This document shows positions 6,269 through 14,096 of a stretch of 64,000 bases of DNA, piece by piece (within the stretch, counting starts at the first letter, position 1; each line of letters opens with the position of its first letter). The notes under the pieces were generated by a model. It saw nothing but the letters and a program-made list of their open reading frames with translations, was not told where the DNA came from and did no database searches. The stretch is from Candidatus Thorarchaeota archaeon. Lineage in GTDB: Archaea; Asgardarchaeota; Thorarchaeia; Thorarchaeales; Thorarchaeaceae. The stretch covers positions 64,001 to 128,000 of the forward strand of contig DXJO01000010.1 in the NCBI GenBank assembly GCA_019057475.1, read 5' to 3'. The position numbers and the translations under genes were made by a program.

Positions 6269-7254
6269 GGCCCTGTTGAAAAAGTCACCTCCCGGCACAC
6301 TCCAAGAAGTTGAGGCGTTCGATGTTGTGCAACACCACCTTGATCAGCAGCTCTCTTCGCCGCTCCATCCAACCCCTCGAACTCAGACTTCCTCCGTATC
6401 TCAGCTTCATCATGCCGAACACGGTTTCCACAAGGCTCCTTCTCCCGTACTGATGAGCTCTCTTCCACTCCTCAGGGTCTGCTCGATACTCCCTCATCAA
6501 CCTCCCATATGCCCAGTGACTCTTTGAGTTGATGCTCGAAGTGCTCTTTGGCTCGATGGCGGGATATGCACCGATATCAGCTATGAACTGGACATTCCTC
6601 CTTGAGATGTATGCCTTGTCACCATAGACGGTCTCAAGACTACTCTTTGAGACCCTCCTGACCAGTGGGACCATGAACATTGGATCACCTCCCGGCTTAC
6701 CTCTGACCCGAGTCGCATGGATCAACAGGGTGTCAGTGTCCACTGCGTTGTGAAGTGCATGGAAACGCCTTCTACGGCTCTTCCTCAACCTCACAGAGAA
6801 CCACTCTCCCCCAGTGGAGTGTGAGAACCCGGAGGAGTCCACGGCAATGTTCTCTGGAGGAGGTCTCTTCCGGGCAAGAAGTTCGTACATTCGATGAAGG
6901 AGTCCTGTGTCGACACGGGTCAGTGCCTTCTGAAGCAGGGAGTAGCTGGGAGCTCTCTCAAGGCCAAGATGGCTCAACAAGTGGGGGTTGAAGTTGACAT
7001 GGGCTACGAAGTCACGGTAGCTGAGTCCGAGGTCGAACTTGAGTCCGAGAAGAACAAAGAGAGTGGGGAGCGGGAACTCGACAGGTCGACCGTGTCTGGA
7101 TCTGGTGTCGGGGATGGTATTGCAAAGGCTGATAAGTTCGTTGAGCAGAAAGTGATAACGGCGAGCCTTGGCCGCATCATGTGATGCATGGTAGGACATG
7201 AATCATGTGACGTTGCTGACTCGCCTCTGAATTCTTGTATTATTCAACAGGGCC
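6269..7254 (-). mobile_element. Insertion sequence, IS5 family, IS903 group (986 bp)
   Basis: TIRs GGCCCTGTTGAA at 6269 and TTCAACAGGGCC ending 7254 (cf. IS903 GGCTTTGTTGAA); 9-bp TSD ATTCTTATC at 6260-6268 and 7255-7263. Confidence 0.95.
6285..7199 (-). CDS. IS5-family DDE transposase
   Basis: IAVDSSG, VYGDKAY and Y.RRSLVETVFGMMK motifs; lies inside the TIRs. Confidence 0.95.
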   Translation of the reverse strand: MSYHASHDAAKARRYHFLLNELISLCNTIPDTRSRHGRPVEFPLPTLFVLLGLKFDLGLSYRDFVAHVNFNPHLLSHLGLERAPSYSLLQKALTRVDTGLLHRMYELLARKRPPPENIAVDSSGFSHSTGGEWFSVRLRKSRRRRFHALHNAVDTDTLLIHATRVRGKPGGDPMFMVPLVRRVSKSSLETVYGDKAYISRRNVQFIADIGAYPAIEPKSTSSINSKSHWAYGRLMREYRADPEEWKRAHQYGRRSLVETVFGMMKLRYGGSLSSRGWMERRRELLIKVVLHNIERLNFLECAGR

Positions 7255-7394: not shown

Positions 7395-10310
7395 GTGAGT
7401 TCCATGGACTACGATTCCAGAAAAATCGAGAAGAAATGGCAGAAGCGTTGGACGAAAGACGGGGTGTTTGAAGCAGACCCTGACCCTTCCCGACCTAAAT
7501 TCTTCCTTACATGCCCCTATCCATACGTCAATGGTGCTCTGCACATTGGCCACGGTCGAACCTACACAGTGGCTGACCTGATTGCCAGATACAACCGTAT
7601 GCGCGGCTTCAACGTGCTGTTCCCAATGGCATCTCACATGACGGGCACGCCCATACAAGGGATGGTAGATAGAATCAAGTCTGGTGACCAAGTCGCAATG
7701 GAGCAATACAAGAGAGACCTTCGTTTGTATTTGGAAACAGAGGAGGAGGTCGAGGCGCAACTGGCGAAGTTCATCGACCCATGGGTCACAGCCAGATTCT
7801 TTGCGAAGGCTATTCGCCAGGACTTTGATGCTTTGGGCTACAGCATCGACTGGCGAAGGAAATTCGCCACTGGTGATAAGACCTACAACCAGTTTGTCAC
7901 CTGGCAATATCACAAGTTCATGGACAAAGGCTACATCAAGCAGGGTGACTATCCGCTACTGTACTGCCCCAATGATGGTAACCCCGTTGGGGAGGATGAC
8001 CTACTAGAGGGTGCGACAGCCAAGGTCAAGGAGTTCACTGCCATTAAGTTCGACTTCGAGGATGGATATCTGGTTGCTGCGACGCTCCGCCCGGAAACAA
8101 TCTTCGGTGTCACAAACATGTGGATTCATCCAACTGAAGAGTACGTGTGGGCACTAGTCAACGGTGAGAAGTGGGTGGTTTCAAAGAAGGCTGTTAAGAA
8201 ACTGAAGCTGCAGGCTAAGGAGGTGGAGGTTCTAGAAACCTTCCCCGGCTCGAAGATCATTGGCAAGAGCTTCCAAGCGGTTCATGATGGCCATGATATT
8301 CCAATCTTTCCTGCTGAGTTCGTAGACCCGAATAACGCTACGGGCGTTGTGTATTCCGTGCCGGGACATGCTCCATTCGACTACATTGCATTGCGCGACC
8401 TGTGGGAAGATCCCTCTCCGTTGAAACCGTATGGCATATCAGCTGAAGAAGTTCGTGCGATAGAAATCATCAGCATGATTGAAATGAAGGGCTACAGCGA
8501 GTTTCCTGCGAAGGATGCAGTCGAGTCCAGAAACATCAAGTCACAAGCTCAAGCGGAGGAACTGGAGGCCGCAACTCAGGAGATCTATAAAGCTGAGTTC
8601 TACGACGGGGTGATGAAGGACAACTGCATGCAGTTCTCCGGGCGAGAGATCAAAGATGTGAAGGAAGATGTGGTCAAATGGATGAAGTCGACGAACCACA
8701 TTGATGTCTTCTACGAACCCGATGTTCGGCCTGTAGTCTGCAAGTGCGGAGCTGACGTACAGATTGGAGTCTTTGCTGGACAGTGGTTCTTGGACTATGA
8801 GAGCACTGGGTGGAAGGACGAGGCATGGAAGGCTCTCAACTCGATGGACATTGTTCCAGAAACATTCAGAAACCTATTCGAGGCGACATTTGACTGGTTG
8901 GCACAGAGACCATGTGCAAGGAAACGGGGCATCGGTACAAAGCTGCCATTCGATGAGGAGTGGATAATCGAGTCGCTGTCAGATTCCACTATCTACATGG
9001 CGTTCTACACAATCTCTCACAAGATTACCGGGAATAAGCTGAAGCCAGAACAGCTGACATTGAGTTTCTTTGACTATGTCTTCTTAGGAAAAGGCGGTAT
9101 CAAGAAGACCGCGAAGGAAACCGGCATATCCGAAGATCTGTTGAAATCTATGCGTGACGAATTCGCTTACTGGTATCCCAATGATCAGAGACATACAGCT
9201 CCATCTCACATATCGAATCATCTGAGCTTTGCCATCTTCCATCATGTGGCCATATTCCCTGAGAAGCACTGGCTGAAGTGCATCAGCCTGAATGAGCACG
9301 TGAACCTGGAAGGCGCAAGGATGTCCAAGAGCAAGGGCAACGTCTTCCCTCTAGTGGAGATCCCTCAGAAGTACGGTGCTGATGTCTACAGAACATACGC
9401 GGTTTCTGCGGCTGAGCCCGGCAGTCTGATGGACTGGCGCGAGCGTGATGTTCCAGCTGTGAGGAATCGGCTGCAAAGCTTCATGGAGATAATGCAGAAA
9501 CACTCCACGAAAGAACCGAGAGTCTATCTGAAGAAGGACAAGCCAGCTGCAATCACTCGTTGGCTACTATCAAAGGTGAACTCGATTATTGAGTCATGCA
9601 CTCAGAATCTGGATAACTTCAGGCTACGTGATTACGCAATAGCTGTTACATCTGAAATGACACGAGCTGTAAACCACTACCTAAGACGGCCGGAGGTTCC
9701 CAAAGAGGAGCGTGAGGGAACATTGGCCTACGTATGTGATGTCTGGGTGCGGCTGGCGGCCCCTCTCATTCCTCACACCTGCGAGGAAGTCTGGTCCAAG
9801 ATGGATCGAGATGGTTACATATCCTTAGCATCCTGGCCCAAACCAGACAAGAAACTGATTGACCCGTCCATTGAAGTGGCTCATCAAGTCGTCTTGTCCA
9901 CTATGCGTGACGTGAGGGAAATCATGAAACTCCTGAAGGACACCAAGGCGAAGAAGGTACATGTCTATGTTGCGCCCGAATGGATGTTCCAAGCTCTGAA
10001 TAGTGTCCGTGAGGCGGAGTTGCCAGTAATCGTGGGCACCATTATGAAACATCTAATGTCGAATCCCGACTTTAGGAAATATGGCAAGCAGGTGAAGAAC
10101 ATCGTTGATAGGGTTGCGAAGGAGAACGGCCTTTGGGACCACTCCTCAAGCGCTGCAGATGAGATTGCGGTCCTGCTGGGCTCGGCAAACTACATGAGCG
10201 AAGAGCTGGGGCTTGAAGTAGTCATACAAAACTCGGAGAGTCCCGAATGCGACCCTCAGAATAAAGCACGGTTCGCACTGCCAGGACGGACATCGCTCTT
10301 CTTGGAGTAG
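7395..10310 (+). CDS. leuS: Leucine--tRNA ligase, archaeal/eukaryotic type
   Basis: PYPYVNGALHIGH, ATLRPET editing domain, IESLSDSTIYMA, RMSKSKGN. Confidence 0.98.
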   Translation: MSSMDYDSRKIEKKWQKRWTKDGVFEADPDPSRPKFFLTCPYPYVNGALHIGHGRTYTVADLIARYNRMRGFNVLFPMASHMTGTPIQGMVDRIKSGDQVAMEQYKRDLRLYLETEEEVEAQLAKFIDPWVTARFFAKAIRQDFDALGYSIDWRRKFATGDKTYNQFVTWQYHKFMDKGYIKQGDYPLLYCPNDGNPVGEDDLLEGATAKVKEFTAIKFDFEDGYLVAATLRPETIFGVTNMWIHPTEEYVWALVNGEKWVVSKKAVKKLKLQAKEVEVLETFPGSKIIGKSFQAVHDGHDIPIFPAEFVDPNNATGVVYSVPGHAPFDYIALRDLWEDPSPLKPYGISAEEVRAIEIISMIEMKGYSEFPAKDAVESRNIKSQAQAEELEAATQEIYKAEFYDGVMKDNCMQFSGREIKDVKEDVVKWMKSTNHIDVFYEPDVRPVVCKCGADVQIGVFAGQWFLDYESTGWKDEAWKALNSMDIVPETFRNLFEATFDWLAQRPCARKRGIGTKLPFDEEWIIESLSDSTIYMAFYTISHKITGNKLKPEQLTLSFFDYVFLGKGGIKKTAKETGISEDLLKSMRDEFAYWYPNDQRHTAPSHISNHLSFAIFHHVAIFPEKHWLKCISLNEHVNLEGARMSKSKGNVFPLVEIPQKYGADVYRTYAVSAAEPGSLMDWRERDVPAVRNRLQSFMEIMQKHSTKEPRVYLKKDKPAAITRWLLSKVNSIIESCTQNLDNFRLRDYAIAVTSEMTRAVNHYLRRPEVPKEEREGTLAYVCDVWVRLAAPLIPHTCEEVWSKMDRDGYISLASWPKPDKKLIDPSIEVAHQVVLSTMRDVREIMKLLKDTKAKKVHVYVAPEWMFQALNSVREAELPVIVGTIMKHLMSNPDFRKYGKQVKNIVDRVAKENGLWDHSSSAADEIAVLLGSANYMSEELGLEVVIQNSESPECDPQNKARFALPGRTSLFLE

Positions 10311-10318
10311 TCGATCTG

Positions 10319-10756
10319 TCAGGTCGTGTATCTTGCTACATTGTCCTTGAACCACTCTGGGACCTGGGCATCATCGACTCTATCAGATGAAGGCAAGTAT
10401 GGTTTAATGTCAATAATGGGTGTTTTGTCAAAAGCGTCAATCTGGTCGATTCGGATTCGATGGTTTGTATCATTAATACCCCTGACAGCTACTATTGAGA
10501 TACCAATAGGGGTGGGCCGGGCAGGGGATCTAGTTGCGAATACGCCTGACAGTTCAGCATTTGTCTTAGGAGGACGACCCCTCAGGTGAGAACGGTCTGC
10601 TGGATTGTCCCGTTCAGTAATCCACCAGAGCACGATGATGTGGGAGAACTTATCCAGCTGAAGTACAGCATCCCAATACTCCGGTTTGATTTCAAGATAG
10701 ATTGAGTCGTCGTTCGTCTTCCTGACGGTTCCCACTACACTGGCACAGAGTTCCAT
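10319..10756 (-). CDS. TrmO/TsaA (YaeB)-like SAM-binding tRNA methyltransferase
   Basis: FSHIIVLWW, GVFATRSPARPTPIG, IDAFDKTPIIDIKPY; start at ATG 10756 after GAGGTGA. Confidence 0.9.
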   Translation of the reverse strand: MELCASVVGTVRKTNDDSIYLEIKPEYWDAVLQLDKFSHIIVLWWITERDNPADRSHLRGRPPKTNAELSGVFATRSPARPTPIGISIVAVRGINDTNHRIRIDQIDAFDKTPIIDIKPYLPSSDRVDDAQVPEWFKDNVARYTT

Positions 10757-10877
10757 ATTGGACTTCACCTCGCTGCATGCAGGCGCACTCCCAGATGAAT
10801 CAATTGGAATATCCCGGAATATTGATGATTCACAGATGCGAATCGGTGGGGTCCCAGTTCTTCTCAACGGAAACTAG

Positions 10878-11375
10878 CTAGACCAGCGGTCCTGCCTTCA
10901 TCTTGAGTTTCTTGGCAGCTTCTTCCAAGGCATAGCCCTCAACAGACGGGGCGAGGCCTGTTTCTTCCAGTGGAATGACTAACCGCATTCCCCCTTTCTT
11001 TGAATAGGCACCAAGACCCACACTTGTGCCCACTTGGATAACCTTCTTCTTCCGGAAGACCCGCTGGACTTTGAGAAAACCATCAGTGCAGGCAAGCACG
11101 ATTATAGCTGTGGCGTCATTGTAGATTTCCTTTGTCGCCTTATGCTTCGTACGTTCACGAATCAGGGGGGGTTGGCAGCTAACGCCGACGAGTTCCTGAC
11201 GGATGACGTTGAATCCATCCTTTTCAAGAGCTTCAGCAAGGGCCTTGAGATTCTTGCGTCCGCCAAGGTCGCAGTATTTCGTGCAGTCATTGCATGACCA
11301 CACAACGATTTTGTCGTCCTTGTCAAGCTTCTCTTTCAGCTGTTCATAGTCGAGGCTACGAAGCACTACAATCAA
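10878..11375 (-). CDS. MetV-like protein (N-terminal domain of the methylene-THF reductase small subunit only)
   Basis: CxxCxxxCxxGG, later C, and LACxxG match the MetV N-domain; the Cys-rich C-domain is absent. Confidence 0.7.
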   Translation of the reverse strand: MIVVLRSLDYEQLKEKLDKDDKIVVWSCNDCTKYCDLGGRKNLKALAEALEKDGFNVIRQELVGVSCQPPLIRERTKHKATKEIYNDATAIIVLACTDGFLKVQRVFRKKKVIQVGTSVGLGAYSKKGGMRLVIPLEETGLAPSVEGYALEEAAKKLKMKAGPLV

Positions 11376-11770
11376 GATTCAACCCCCTCTGGTGTAACGA
11401 CCTTCAACATTTCGTTCATGGCAGGCACTCCCAATGTTCTCACTCCTGCGACAACGGAGATTTTGGGGAATTTCCGCTTGATTACGCTCCAACCCGCCCA
11501 ACAGCCCAGACAGAGTATCTTATCGACATCGCTGGCCGGTTTCGCATAGTCGTAGTAGTCGAAATTGCAGCCAATGGTAAGCACAATCTCCTCCGCAACC
11601 TCAATTCCAACATCTTGCACAAGCTTCTGACTAATCTCTTCCATCAGCTTTGCTCCGCCAGCTTCTTGCGATCGTGTGCAAGTATTGCAGGTAACAATCG
11701 AAACTCGTTCTCCCTTCTTGAATTGAGCCTTGATCTTCTCATAGGGAACCGCTTCAACAGCACAGACCAA
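11372..11770 (-). CDS. Second MetV N-domain-like paralogue
   Basis: VTCNTCTRSQEAGG, IGC, ILCLGCWAG; stop overlaps next start. Confidence 0.65.
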   Translation of the reverse strand: MVCAVEAVPYEKIKAQFKKGERVSIVTCNTCTRSQEAGGAKLMEEISQKLVQDVGIEVAEEIVLTIGCNFDYYDYAKPASDVDKILCLGCWAGWSVIKRKFPKISVVAGVRTLGVPAMNEMLKVVTPEGVES

Positions 11771-11772
11771 AT

Positions 11773-12264
11773 CTATCCCTCCTGGGGCAAGATGATTCTT
11801 CTTGCGTGCGTACCAGCGTTGTCAAGCCGCTTTGCAGTCGTTTCATGGTAGTCAGCTTCGAAGTCCGACAGCTCGCCAAAGACTAGCGCTTTTGAAGGGC
11901 AGACTTCCACACATGCGGGGTCTTTGCCAGCCTTCTGACGGTCGTAGCACATGTCGCATTTCATGGTCTTCCGCGTCTTCTCATTGTAGATTGGAACCCC
12001 CCATGGACAAATCAATTCGCATGCACGACAACCGATGCACTTCTCATCGTCAATTAGCACGATGCCATCTTCAATGTGGATTGCCTCAGTTGGACAGACC
12101 TTTTCGCAGGGAGCATCTTCACAATGTGCACAACGGAAAGGAACCGGAATTCCTTGGAATTCATCCACATAGCACAATGATTCTCCATTCTCTCGGATAC
12201 AGGCTTCGATGCATTCCTCACAGCCTAGGCAGCGATTCATGACTAGAAAGACATTTCGTGGCAT
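11773..12264 (-). CDS. 4x[4Fe-4S] electron-transfer protein (HycB/HydN/DmsB type)
   Basis: CLGCEECIEAC, CAHCEDAPCEKVCP, CIGCRACELICP, KCDMC...PACVEVCP. Confidence 0.92.
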   Translation of the reverse strand: MPRNVFLVMNRCLGCEECIEACIRENGESLCYVDEFQGIPVPFRCAHCEDAPCEKVCPTEAIHIEDGIVLIDDEKCIGCRACELICPWGVPIYNEKTRKTMKCDMCYDRQKAGKDPACVEVCPSKALVFGELSDFEADYHETTAKRLDNAGTHARRIILPQEG

Positions 12265-12282
12265 TTTGGCACATCCAAGTTT

Positions 12283-13377
12283 CTAGGATTTTCTCCCCGT
12301 CGCCAGTGCGGGTTGAGCAACCTCCGCAATGGCCTGAGCAATCTTCTCGCGCTTGCACGTTGGACAGGTGGTGTACGGTTCGAAGGGAAGACTGAGTCCA
12401 TCAATCGCCTTAACCGCCTCTTTCTCCGCAAGACGCTTTTTGAGATCCTCACCAAACGGAATTGGACTGAAGGGCTCTCCACAGACGGAGCATTTCTGCA
12501 ATTCGACTTCCAAGTCCCAGAGAGGTTCCTCCTTCATGTACGATAACAATTCAAACCCTGGCACAATCTCAATGGCCTCTTGTGGACAGGCTTTTTCACA
12601 TTCCTTGCACACAAGGCACTCAGTGTGAAGAGTTCCGTACTTGCGCTTGTCTTCTACGTCTTCAATGGAAATGACATCTTCAGGGCACACGCTATAGCAC
12701 GCATAACATCCGATGCATTTGTCCGGGTCCCTCTTTGGAAAACCATAACCTTCCATGACTTCTTCCGGTTCGAAAATCATGACCTTTTCTGGTTCATAGT
12801 CGACTCGTCTGGCGATTGAAACCAAGACCTCATGGATCTTGTGTTTCTTGGAAACTGTTTCATCCACATCCAGGTCAGTCAGGTCACTGACATCCTTCAC
12901 TGGGGTGGGTCCAAGCTTCTCAATCTTATTTGTGAAATTCGCGATGACTTCTGCCCACTTCGCTCCTTCAGCTGCTGAAACATGTTCGAAGGTAATCCTA
13001 TCTCCCAACCCCATCTCATCGAGTATCTTCTTGAAGAAGTCGAAGCGCTTCTTGGCGGCGATATTGCCCTCAACATAGTGACAGTCCCCAATGTGACAAC
13101 CACTAATGAGAACACCATCTGCACCCATCTCAAGCGCTCGAAGCACAAACAATGGGTCAATTCTGCCGGTGCAATTTACTCGTATAATCCGAACATTGGG
13201 GGGATGCTGTATCCTGCTTGTGCCTGCGAGGTCAGCTCCGGCGTAGGAGCACCAATTGCACGTCAGAGCGAGAATCCTCGGAAAGAATTCCCCCTTCTTC
13301 TTTCCTTTCGATTTCGGGGCGGATGGAGTTTCTTTGCTCGTAACCGTCAAGATCAAAGGGGCCTCCGGATGCTTCAA
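12283..13377 (-). CDS. MvhD (hydrogenase delta subunit) domain fused to a HycF/HyfH-like 2x[4Fe-4S] domain
   Basis: CNWCSYAGAD, RVNCTGR, GCHIGDCHY (MvhD); CIGCYACYSVCP, CLVCKECEKACP and distal CSVC...CPTCKR (HycF-like); exact start uncertain. Confidence 0.88.
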   Translation of the reverse strand: MKHPEAPLILTVTSKETPSAPKSKGKKKGEFFPRILALTCNWCSYAGADLAGTSRIQHPPNVRIIRVNCTGRIDPLFVLRALEMGADGVLISGCHIGDCHYVEGNIAAKKRFDFFKKILDEMGLGDRITFEHVSAAEGAKWAEVIANFTNKIEKLGPTPVKDVSDLTDLDVDETVSKKHKIHEVLVSIARRVDYEPEKVMIFEPEEVMEGYGFPKRDPDKCIGCYACYSVCPEDVISIEDVEDKRKYGTLHTECLVCKECEKACPQEAIEIVPGFELLSYMKEEPLWDLEVELQKCSVCGEPFSPIPFGEDLKKRLAEKEAVKAIDGLSLPFEPYTTCPTCKREKIAQAIAEVAQPALATGRKS

Positions 13378-13530
13378 GGCTCTTTTCGACTCTCCTATTA
13401 AGGTTCCTGATTACGGAGCGTTGCTCTCAAGTCGATTATTGGTTTCAACTTGTTAGCCGAGGAGAACAGTTTTATGCCCAGCCTAGGAATGCATCCATGA
13501 ATACACGCTACTCGCACGGAGAGAAACGCT

Positions 13531-13767
13531 ATGATTATGGCATTCATAATGGCCAAGATTGAATCTGCAAAAGCTCGAAGCATTCTGGAACATGTCAAAG
13601 AGATTGAGGAAGTAAAAGAAGCGTTTCTCATATATGGCGCATACGATCTCTTGCTCAAGGCAGTCTTCAAAACACCCGAGGCTCTTAGCTCCTTCGTAGT
13701 GGATACGTTGCGCAAGGTCGATGGGGTCAAGGACACCATAACCAACGTCTGCGCGACTTACGACTAG
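13531..13767 (+). CDS. Stand-alone Lrp/AsnC ligand-binding (RAM) domain protein
   Basis: V.EA..IYGAYDLLLK...LRKVDGVKDTIT; no HTH. Confidence 0.88.
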   Translation: MIMAFIMAKIESAKARSILEHVKEIEEVKEAFLIYGAYDLLLKAVFKTPEALSSFVVDTLRKVDGVKDTITNVCATYD

Positions 13768-13778
13768 AGGGATTTCCA

Positions 13779-14096
13779 GTGTCAGAAGTGCATAGTAGAC
13801 GAGTCTACAAATTCAAGCCCCGTTGGGGGCATCAAGTTCATATGGGCGCAGCCGAGATACGCGCTGCGGTTCTCAAGCTTGGCGAAGATGTGCTCGGCAG
13901 CCATTTCTCTGTGAGGATTGTATCTGAAGAGGAGAGCACGATAGAGGTACGATGCGAAGCGGCCACGGGTGCGATCGTGTACGAGATGGACTCGAAGATA
14001 ATGTTCTCGATACTCAATTGGTGTGAGAAGGAGGACATTGACTTCAGCGTTGAAGAAATGGACGCCATGACTCCTGACATGGATGATTACGTGTAG
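13779..14096 (+). CDS. Hypothetical protein (105 aa, acidic C-terminus)
   Basis: Follows the Lrp-domain gene with an RBS-like sequence. Confidence 0.65.
   Translation: MSEVHSRRVYKFKPRWGHQVHMGAAEIRAAVLKLGEDVLGSHFSVRIVSEEESTIEVRCEAATGAIVYEMDSKIMFSILNWCEKEDIDFSVEEMDAMTPDMDDYV

Follow-up and report, generated by a model that had tools for sequence, protein, structure and literature searches.

Positions 10,878 to 13,377 of the window, by which we mean the whole 64,000-nucleotide stretch of Candidatus Thorarchaeota DNA analyzed here (contig C42:64001-128000 of the 3.3-Mb genome labelled G000), contain four genes, P1 to P4, whose products are iron-sulfur proteins and include no catalytic subunit. 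P1 joins a complete MvhD domain to a HycF-type domain, P2 is a four-cluster ferredoxin of the HycB type, and P3 and P4 resemble the N-terminal half of MetV. On balance, we favor the reading that this cassette is a hydrogenase-free, MvhD-docked electron wire for an HdrA-type bifurcating enzyme encoded elsewhere. The evidence comes from the domain composition of the four proteins, the conservation of their cysteines, the conservation of the cassette as a unit, and its alternation with the mvhDGA hydrogenase genes at one genomic position.

A four-gene iron-sulfur cassette headed by an MvhD-HycF fusion

The cassette and the two domains of its first protein are arranged as follows, in window coordinates:

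12283-13377, reverse strand: P1, MvhD-HycF fusion, 364 amino acids by the longest open reading frame (ORF), with homologues starting ~8-12 residues later
12910-13275, reverse strand: MvhD ([2Fe-2S]) domain of P1, residues 35-156, defined by PF02662 and by MvhD chains
12322-12774, reverse strand: HycF/NuoI-type 2x[4Fe-4S] domain of P1, residues 202-352, defined by alignment to 7z0s_F
11773-12264, reverse strand: P2, four-cluster ferredoxin of the HycB / CISM beta-subunit type, 163 amino acids, PF13247 (Fer4_11)
11372-11770, reverse strand: P3, MetV-N-type 4-Cys domain protein, 132 amino acids, identified by BLASTP to the MetV N-terminus and as a P4 paralogue
10878-11375, reverse strand: P4, MetV-N-type 4-Cys domain (residues 1-115) with a P4-specific 50-residue C-terminal extension, 165 amino acids

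All four ORFs are intact and tightly spaced, with gaps of 18 bp between P1 and P2 and 2 bp between P2 and P3, and an overlap of 4 bp between P3 and P4. The products contain 17, 17, 6 and 5 cysteines, respectively. A first-pass annotation of this DNA had described four Fe-S-only genes separated by no more than 18 bp and devoid of a catalytic subunit. The coordinates and spacing were confirmed, and scans with Pfam and NCBIfam detected no flavin protein, hydrogenase catalytic subunit, HdrA or MetF among the four products. No NuoB/NuoD-type hydrogenase subunits and no membrane subunits were found in the cassette or its flanks.

P1 carries the database label "hydrogenase iron-sulfur subunit". Its residues 35-156 match PF02662 (FlpD/MvhD) over model positions 1-123 of 123 (E 2.5e-50, 170 bits against a cut-off of 22.3), and its closest solved relatives are MvhD chains, beginning with 7bkb_F (E 1e-51), followed by 9sw2_D and 5odc_D, down to E 1e-43. 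P1 also matches Pfam Fer4 families, and its residues 202-352 match the NCBIfam models of formate hydrogenlyase (FHL) Fe-S subunits with E 1.2e-23 and 2e-20, at scores far under the curated HycF/HyfH cut-offs (83.8 bits against 204 for PRK12387 and 73.4 against 270 for PRK08222). When aligned to Escherichia coli HycF (7z0s_F, residues 30-163; E 1e-15), P1 shows both [4Fe-4S] motifs, of the form CxxCxxCxxxCP, and the distal quartet, with C296, C299, C338 and C341 pairing with the distal CxxC...CPxCKR of HycF. The full MvhD domain and the HycF cysteine pattern, including its distal part, that the first-pass annotation had recognized in P1 are therefore both borne out. Across 43 full-length fusion homologues, down to 36% identity, 17 of the 17 P1 cysteines are invariant; these comprise C40, C43, C69, C94 and C99 of the MvhD domain, which are kept in 43 of 43 homologues and align with MvhD of 7bkb_F and 9sw2_D, and all 12 cysteines of the HycF-type domain. 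In the FHL structure, one metal ion sits in the HycF quartet C117/C120/C155/C158, and HycB is contacted by the extension bearing these cysteines (PMC9474812). The HycF quartet of P1 and a HycB-type P2 reproduce a pair known to touch, which speaks for the wire proposed below.

The HycB-like character assigned to P2 was supported by its match to PF13247 (Fer4_11; E 7e-25, 87.6 bits against a cut-off of 26.2) and by its four cysteine groups: 16 of the 17 cysteines form four complete cluster motifs. The relatives of P2 are ArrB, FdnH, PsrB/NrfC, HDCR HycB3/4, AorA, WOR5-B and HycB, and no catalytic Mo/W-bisPGD or hydrogenase partner adjoins the gene. An orphan Mo/W-bisPGD partner encoded elsewhere was considered and rejected, the only two PF00384 genes of the genome lying on contig C21 beside mvhD and on contig C7 beside nuoE/nuoF.

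P3 and P4 resemble the N-terminal half of MetV

The last two proteins, labelled "hypothetical" in the databases, gave no Pfam or NCBIfam match even at E 10, and the Pfam model of MetV itself, PF12225 (DUF5981), does not match either of them at E<=10. P3 and P4 are paralogous to each other (E 4e-12), and in BLASTP both align with the first ~110 residues of PF12225-bearing MetV proteins (E 1e-7 to 6e-13; for P3 alone, E 1e-7 to 3e-12). Since PF12225 is absent while the similarity falls on the N-terminal half of MetV, we classify P3 and P4, as judged from their sequences, as homologues of that half lying outside Pfam coverage, that is, as "MetV-N-only" proteins and not as MetV. Of the two MetV-like domains in the first-pass annotation, the N-terminal four-cysteine homology thus stands and the identification with MetV does not; profile support extends to the HycF-type domain, under its cut-off, and is lacking for the Pfam MetV model.

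When 400 Asgard genomes were searched in six frames with P4, strong orthologues were found in 14 and, in more than 100, weak matches (E 1e-6 to 1e-10) to residues 1-110 of ~221-residue ORFs. Among five weakly matching ORFs that were scanned, four are genuine MetV, with PF12225 at residues ~115-210, and one, of 187 residues, is without it. Residues C28, C31, C67 and C96 of P4 and a GG motif are common to P4, P3 and MetV. The conserved-column cysteines of P3 are C28, C31, C68 and C90, the third cysteine of the CxxCxxxC motif being serine in P3, and the fifth cysteine of P4, C35, is substituted in several orthologues as well as in P3. Orthologues of P4 from outside Thorarchaeota, in other archaea and in bacteria, are 45-57% identical.

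The AF2 model of P4 (pLDDT 97) predicts a Rossmann-like alpha/beta fold in which the conserved cysteines would lie at or just past the ends of three beta-strands. Foldseek comparison of this model with the PDB gave nothing at E<=0.001, and a wide VIA-align search retrieved only generic Rossmann-like and periplasmic-binding-protein folds (Z 7-9), with no specific relative and without MvhD among the top matches. Sequence searches of all solved chains gave no significant match for P4 (best E 0.39) or for true MetV, and a P4::NuoG-N fusion matched the PDB only through its NuoG-N part, residues ~180-400. When the P3/P4/MetV-N profile was compared with MvhD by hhalign, the probability was 3%, short of significance, with the cysteine columns in register. 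HMMER with the domain profile retrieved 1,139 cluster representatives (50% identity), and in the 150 best of these the domain lies at or near the N-terminus. A scan of 109 profile matches identified PF12225 in 43, a NuoG-N-type Fe-S domain in 4 and MetF in 2, with mostly no other domain in the rest; the ESM Atlas returned hypothetical proteins only.

The sole PF12225 gene of the genome is a 245-residue ORF on contig C24, near MetF (PF02219), and no metF lies near the cassette. A link of the cassette to MetF is accordingly not seen, the real MetV-MetF pair being the one on C24. At that locus (L053:4342-8289), the genes for true MetV (245 amino acids) and MetF (337 amino acids) are split by a 690-amino-acid gene, the product of which has a hydrophobic N-terminus resembling a signal peptide; two genes beside them are presumably MtrH-like, from the look of their sequences. 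At the cassette itself, an antisense ORF of 185 amino acids (window 11294-11851, forward strand) overlies P3 and P4; it exceeds P3 in length and might mislead ORF callers.

The cassette alternates with mvh hydrogenase genes at one genomic position

The cassette is syntenic in at least eight Thorarchaeota genomes from three genera, in which identities to the window proteins are 65-88% for P1, 70-98% for P2, 76-95% for P3 and 72-94% for P4. Every syntenic cassette has leuS on one side and, on the other, the divergent asnC78(-hyp105) followed by an island encoding AOR, the polyferredoxin Fd163, an amidohydrolase and MoaD. The region between P1 and this island consists of:

13378-13530, no strand: divergent intergenic region between P1 and asnC78, an arrangement kept in family genomes
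13531-14096, forward strand: asnC78 (78 amino acids, a stand-alone AsnC ligand-binding domain; PF01037, E 1.3e-14) and hyp105 (105 amino acids)

The asnC78 product has no helix-turn-helix, and hyp105 is unannotated. In sister genomes, exactly the cassette slot is occupied by mvhD-mvhG-mvhA, as confirmed with Pfam. We used the asnC78-hyp105 pair, present in 19 of 86 family genomes and beside the AOR in all 19, to define a comparison set. The gene divergent from the pair encodes MvhD-HycF (P1) in 6 of these genomes and MvhD, followed by MvhG, in 10; it is truncated by the contig end in 1 genome, and no MvhD gene lies within 1.4 kb in the remaining 2. In 16-17 of the 19, the operon on the divergent side of the pair begins with MvhD. 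In G348, G318 and G336, for which longer stretches were available, mvhA was also confirmed after mvhG. One further genome, G371, has the AOR with neither the cassette nor mvh genes at the slot. With P1-P4 in the slot in six and mvhD-mvhG in ten of the 19 genomes, an MvhD head at a single regulatory position is thus followed by one of two tails, the remainder of the cassette or the [NiFe] subunits. The genome under study keeps two mvhDGA sets elsewhere, on contig C29.

Related cassettes in other archaea and in bacteria

In an Asgard metagenome-assembled genome (MAG) labelled Heimdallarchaeota (G397, JBHIFL010000009; L043:5274-16319), the cassette is contained in a single tight operon with the order OFOR(delta, alpha, beta, gamma)-hdrA-P1-P2-P3-P4-hdrC-hdrB-frdB-like-frdA-like-ferredoxin. 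The stop of hdrA and the start of P1 overlap, and a class I fumarase is encoded just downstream of the operon, which is a candidate for an Hdr-linked soluble fumarate reductase / succinate dehydrogenase. An operon of this type is seen in part in G105, and the same arrangement was noted at locus L080. The uncultured bacterium G403 encodes hdrC-hdrB-hdrA-frdB-like on one contig and, on another, a stand-alone P2-P3-P4-P1 followed by hypFCDE.

Stand-alone P2-P3-P4-P1 cassettes also occur in WOR-3, Hydrothermota and other bacterial MAGs, at least five bacterial MAGs showing this form. At the loci with the upstream region recovered (L083, L086 and L087), a divergent gene of ~550 amino acids precedes the cassette, and in L083 this gene encodes a sigma-54/PAS regulator according to Pfam. 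The first-pass annotation had raised the possibility that homologous operons always include a catalytic subunit; with stand-alone cassettes in at least eight Thorarchaeota genomes and in these bacteria, this is not so. Because stand-alone cassettes without a catalytic subunit recur elsewhere, the state of the Thorarchaeota cassette is not one of decay. Nor is the architecture peculiar to this genome: the module is widespread, though unstudied.

In other lineages, different genes precede the same core. A Thermoplasmata MAG (QMTG01000022; L088:1918-6670) has nuoB-nuoC-nuoD-like-nuoI-like directly ahead of P1-P2-P3-P4, with no membrane subunits in that stretch. Armatimonadota encode nuoF-nuoG_N-P2-P3-P4, and Bacillota, Loki-, Baldr- and Bathyarchaeota encode nuoE-nuoF(-gltD)-P3-like-P4::NuoG-N fusion. 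In the contexts examined, P3-like and P4-like genes are always in tandem. The P3-P4 tandem is the constant core, to which P2 and P1 are frequent additions, and the heads attached to it are always electron-input modules of bifurcating enzymes.

A proposed electron wire for HdrA

What we infer from these observations, namely the physical assembly, the order of the wire, the docking on HdrA, the identity of the partner and the direction of the electrons, can be set out as follows. P1-P4 would assemble as one soluble, flavin-free, multi-cluster electron wire, with predicted cofactors comprising one [2Fe-2S] cluster, six [4Fe-4S] clusters, one Cys4 metal site and two MetV-N-type clusters. The MvhD head of P1 would dock on an HdrA-type bifurcating flavoprotein encoded elsewhere, and the wire would take the branch where Mvh hydrogenase or formate dehydrogenase normally feeds HdrA. 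Starting from the HdrA FAD, the predicted order is the MvhD [2Fe-2S] cluster, the two HycF-type clusters, the four P2 clusters and the P3-P4 heterodimer. The HycF part of P1 together with P2 would form the trunk as a pair resembling HycB-HycF, with the Cys4 extension contributing to its cohesion, and the P3-P4 pair may, by analogy with MetV, be a far-end coupling or entry site. MetV-containing reductases take electrons from reduced ferredoxin (type II), RnfC2 (type III) or HdrCBA-MvhD (type IV), and RnfC2 carries an N-terminal MetV-like domain (PMC8760232). Because MetV takes electrons from ferredoxin, RnfC2 or HdrA-MvhD, P3-P4 might pass single electrons to or from ferredoxin or a different partner that is an Fe-S protein or flavoprotein, and the MetV-like domain of RnfC2 would be consistent with the formation of pairs by MetV-type domains, at which the tandem of P3 and P4 hints.

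A wire linked to HdrA is favored because the MvhD domain is complete and nearest to MvhD chains solved within Hdr complexes, because the G397 cassette sits between hdrA and hdrCB, with the same parts split in G403, and because the slot of sister Thorarchaeota holds mvhD-mvhG(-mvhA). A role of P3-P4 in electron transfer is favored because P3/P4-like genes attach to nuoEF, to nuoF-gltD and, by fusion, to NuoG-N.

The cassette can be compared with several known systems. Like MvhADG-HdrABC (5ODC) and Fdh-MvhD-Hdr-Fmd (7BKB), it is headed by a complete MvhD domain; it takes the slot of mvhD-mvhG-mvhA in sister genomes and stands beside hdrA and hdrCB in one Asgard genome. In contrast to these complexes, it lacks FdhAB and both the large and the small [NiFe] subunit; a HycF-type domain is joined to its MvhD, three proteins with Fe-S clusters only come next, and in this genome hdrA is 33 kb off. 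With the HycB-HycF pair of E. coli FHL (7Z0S) it shares the HycF [4Fe-4S] motifs and metal quartet at the P1 C-terminus and the HycB-type P2, whereas P1 has MvhD in place of the N-terminal membrane-proximal segment of E. coli HycF, and HycG/HycE/HycCD and FdhF are not encoded near the cassette. MetV of types II-IV, including MetVF-HdrCBA-MvhD of Moorella/Sporomusa, is homologous to P3/P4 over its N-terminal ~110 residues, with the same four cysteines, and MvhD co-occurs with type IV MetVF enzymes as it does with P3/P4. However, P3/P4 are without the PF12225 C-terminal domain and an adjoining metF, form a tandem heterologous pair and include the 50-residue extension of P4.

The polyferredoxins FmdF (7BKB) and MvhB (9SW6) are, as the cassette would be, flavin-free multi-[4Fe-4S] conduits tied to Hdr complexes. 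Through FmdF and MvhB, low-potential electrons leave HdrA as its output, whereas the cassette wire, covalently joined to MvhD, would be an input-side adaptor. A further likeness is to the Bfu NuoEFG-type enzymes (HydABC, StnABC and NfnABC), since P3/P4 relatives share operons with nuoE-nuoF and are joined by fusion to the N-terminal Fe-S domain of NuoG; in the Thorarchaeota cassette, MvhD-HycF takes the place of NuoEF. No solved Bfu enzyme was found with a P4 domain, because the P4 search of solved chains gave no better than the E value of 0.39 reported above. All domain types in the cassette are already known, and the literature searched contained no description of the MvhD-HycF fusion, the MetV-N-only family or this cassette.

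Candidate partners and points against the proposal

The best homologue of G397 HdrA in the genome is a lone hdrA of 654 amino acids (C42:40333-42297), 51% identical over its full length and located 33 kb upstream. This gene (region C42:38576-42297; L051:8576-12297, outside the window) has no adjoining hdrBC or mvhD; a gene for a MobA-like nucleotidyltransferase lies on one side and hypD on the other, an arrangement kept in other family genomes. An FrdB-like partner, as in G397, was discarded as a candidate, the genome having no homologue. The AOR shows no co-variation with the cassette either, its orthologue being present in 84 of 86 family genomes. Because both the AOR and the lone hdrA are widespread in the family irrespective of the cassette, neither is singled out as partner. 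The stand-alone HdrA adaptor put forward in the first-pass annotation therefore gains comparative context, from the position between hdrA and hdrCB in G397 and from the mvh slot, while co-occurrence does not single out its specific partner.

Several points weigh against the proposed wire. The lone hdrA has an orthologue in ~55 of 86 family genomes, with the cassette present or not, and shows no co-variation with it. The genome encodes 12 MvhD domains and many HdrA paralogues, so the pairing of P1 with a particular HdrA is not deducible from gene content. The Thermoplasmata cassette follows nuoBCDI and not hdrA, and a plain mvhD of its own accompanies the OFOR-hdrA of that genome (L095). If ferredoxin feeds a module made only of Fe-S proteins, bifurcation that reduces ferredoxin serves no purpose, which bears on the energetic logic of the wire. 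HdrA homologues are encoded in each of the five genomes tested that carry the cassette outside the phylum (5/5), but such homologues are common in anaerobes, so their presence lends weak support. Finally, the assembly of P1-P4 and their docking on HdrA are read from sequence comparison.

Alternative explanations

A broader role for the P3-P4 tandem is conceivable, although we hold it only tentatively: the tandem may be an unrecognized, Pfam-uncovered Fe-S plug-in for electron entry or exit, able to take the place of a hydrogenase, a formate dehydrogenase or another catalytic domain on bifurcating enzymes of both the HdrA/MvhD and the NuoEF type. Exchange would then probably be with ferredoxin or with some carrier or substrate.

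It appears unlikely that the cassette serves specifically as the route by which electrons leave or enter the neighboring tungsten AOR island, with a path from AOR and Fd163 through P2-P4 to MvhD. This explanation overlaps with the electron wire for HdrA and differs only in naming AOR/Fd163 as the partner; in sister genomes, mvhDGA would have this function with H2. It draws on the adjacency of the cassette to AOR-Fd163-amidohydrolase-MoaD in every cassette-bearing Thorarchaeota genome, on the divergent asnC78-hyp105 region common to the cassette and the AOR side, and on the P2-type ferredoxins that are known subunits of tungsten AORs (8c0z_C and 6x6u_B are among the P2 matches). However, 84 of the 86 family genomes have the AOR and only ~9 the cassette, G371 has the AOR with neither module at that site, the AOR already has its own ferredoxin subunit, and the cassette lies beside an AOR in 0 of 13 contexts examined outside Thorarchaeota.

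Less likely again is that P3-P4 form a functional end point, either as a redox sensor or as a new Fe-S redox site whose target is a small molecule or the thiol/disulfide of a protein; the cassette would then be an enzyme complete in itself, for which HdrA would perhaps be unneeded. The nuoE-nuoF-P3-P4::NuoG-N arrangement does put P3-P4 where HydA, FdhA and GltD sit in Bfu enzymes, with no other catalytic gene, and stand-alone cassettes are found in several phyla; in addition, P4 has a fold without a specific solved relative and is strongly conserved across Thorarchaeota (72-93% identity, against 65-88% for P1). Set against this, no conserved cofactor-binding or catalytic motif was found beyond the four cysteines, C35 of P4 being substituted in several orthologues and in P3; the characterized relative, MetV, is an electron-transfer subunit (PMC8760232); and the complete MvhD domain with all its cysteines kept points to an HdrA-type partner.

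That the cassette is a non-functional remnant of a larger Hdr or hydrogenase operon whose catalytic genes were lost is highly improbable: more distant homologous operons do contain hdrA/hdrBC/frdAB or nuoBCD, yet the four ORFs are intact and tightly spaced, the same four-gene unit is kept over three Thorarchaeota genera, with identities of 65-97%, and in bacterial phyla, and the 17 cysteines of P1 and the four ligand cysteines of P3 and P4 are all conserved.

Flanking genes

The longest ORF for TrmO/TsaA (window 10319-10867) begins 10 bp past the P4 stop; because TrmO homologues start at residue 34-38, the true gap from P4 is ~110-120 bp. In other genomes, the cassette occurs without TrmO as a lasting neighbor. 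An ORF of 304 amino acids (window 6285-7199), which we take from its appearance to be transposase-like, lies immediately upstream of leuS (7395-10310) and is missing at that position in the syntenic genomes examined.

Implications for electron bifurcation in anaerobes

Energy metabolism in anaerobes, Asgard archaea included, relies centrally on flavin-based electron bifurcation by HdrA. Few modules are listed as feeding HdrA via MvhD, namely Mvh hydrogenase, formate dehydrogenase and reductase complexes of the MetFV type. MetV is a key protein of acetogens, and its physiological electron donor is still debated. The cassette described here is a conserved, multi-phylum module with an MvhD head, no catalytic subunit, and a Pfam-less domain family of which MetV is only a part. 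Its alternation with mvhG/mvhA leads to testable predictions, either that Hdr chemistry is run from a donor other than H2 in Asgard archaea and other anaerobes, or that P3-P4 constitute a new redox site. The exchange with mvhGA, the spread over several phyla and the Pfam-uncovered family make the cassette a worthwhile experimental target. If P3-P4 do act as a plug-in, the Thorarchaeota cassette would represent a new, H2-independent class of Hdr input module, and the unannotated half of MetV would gain a role.

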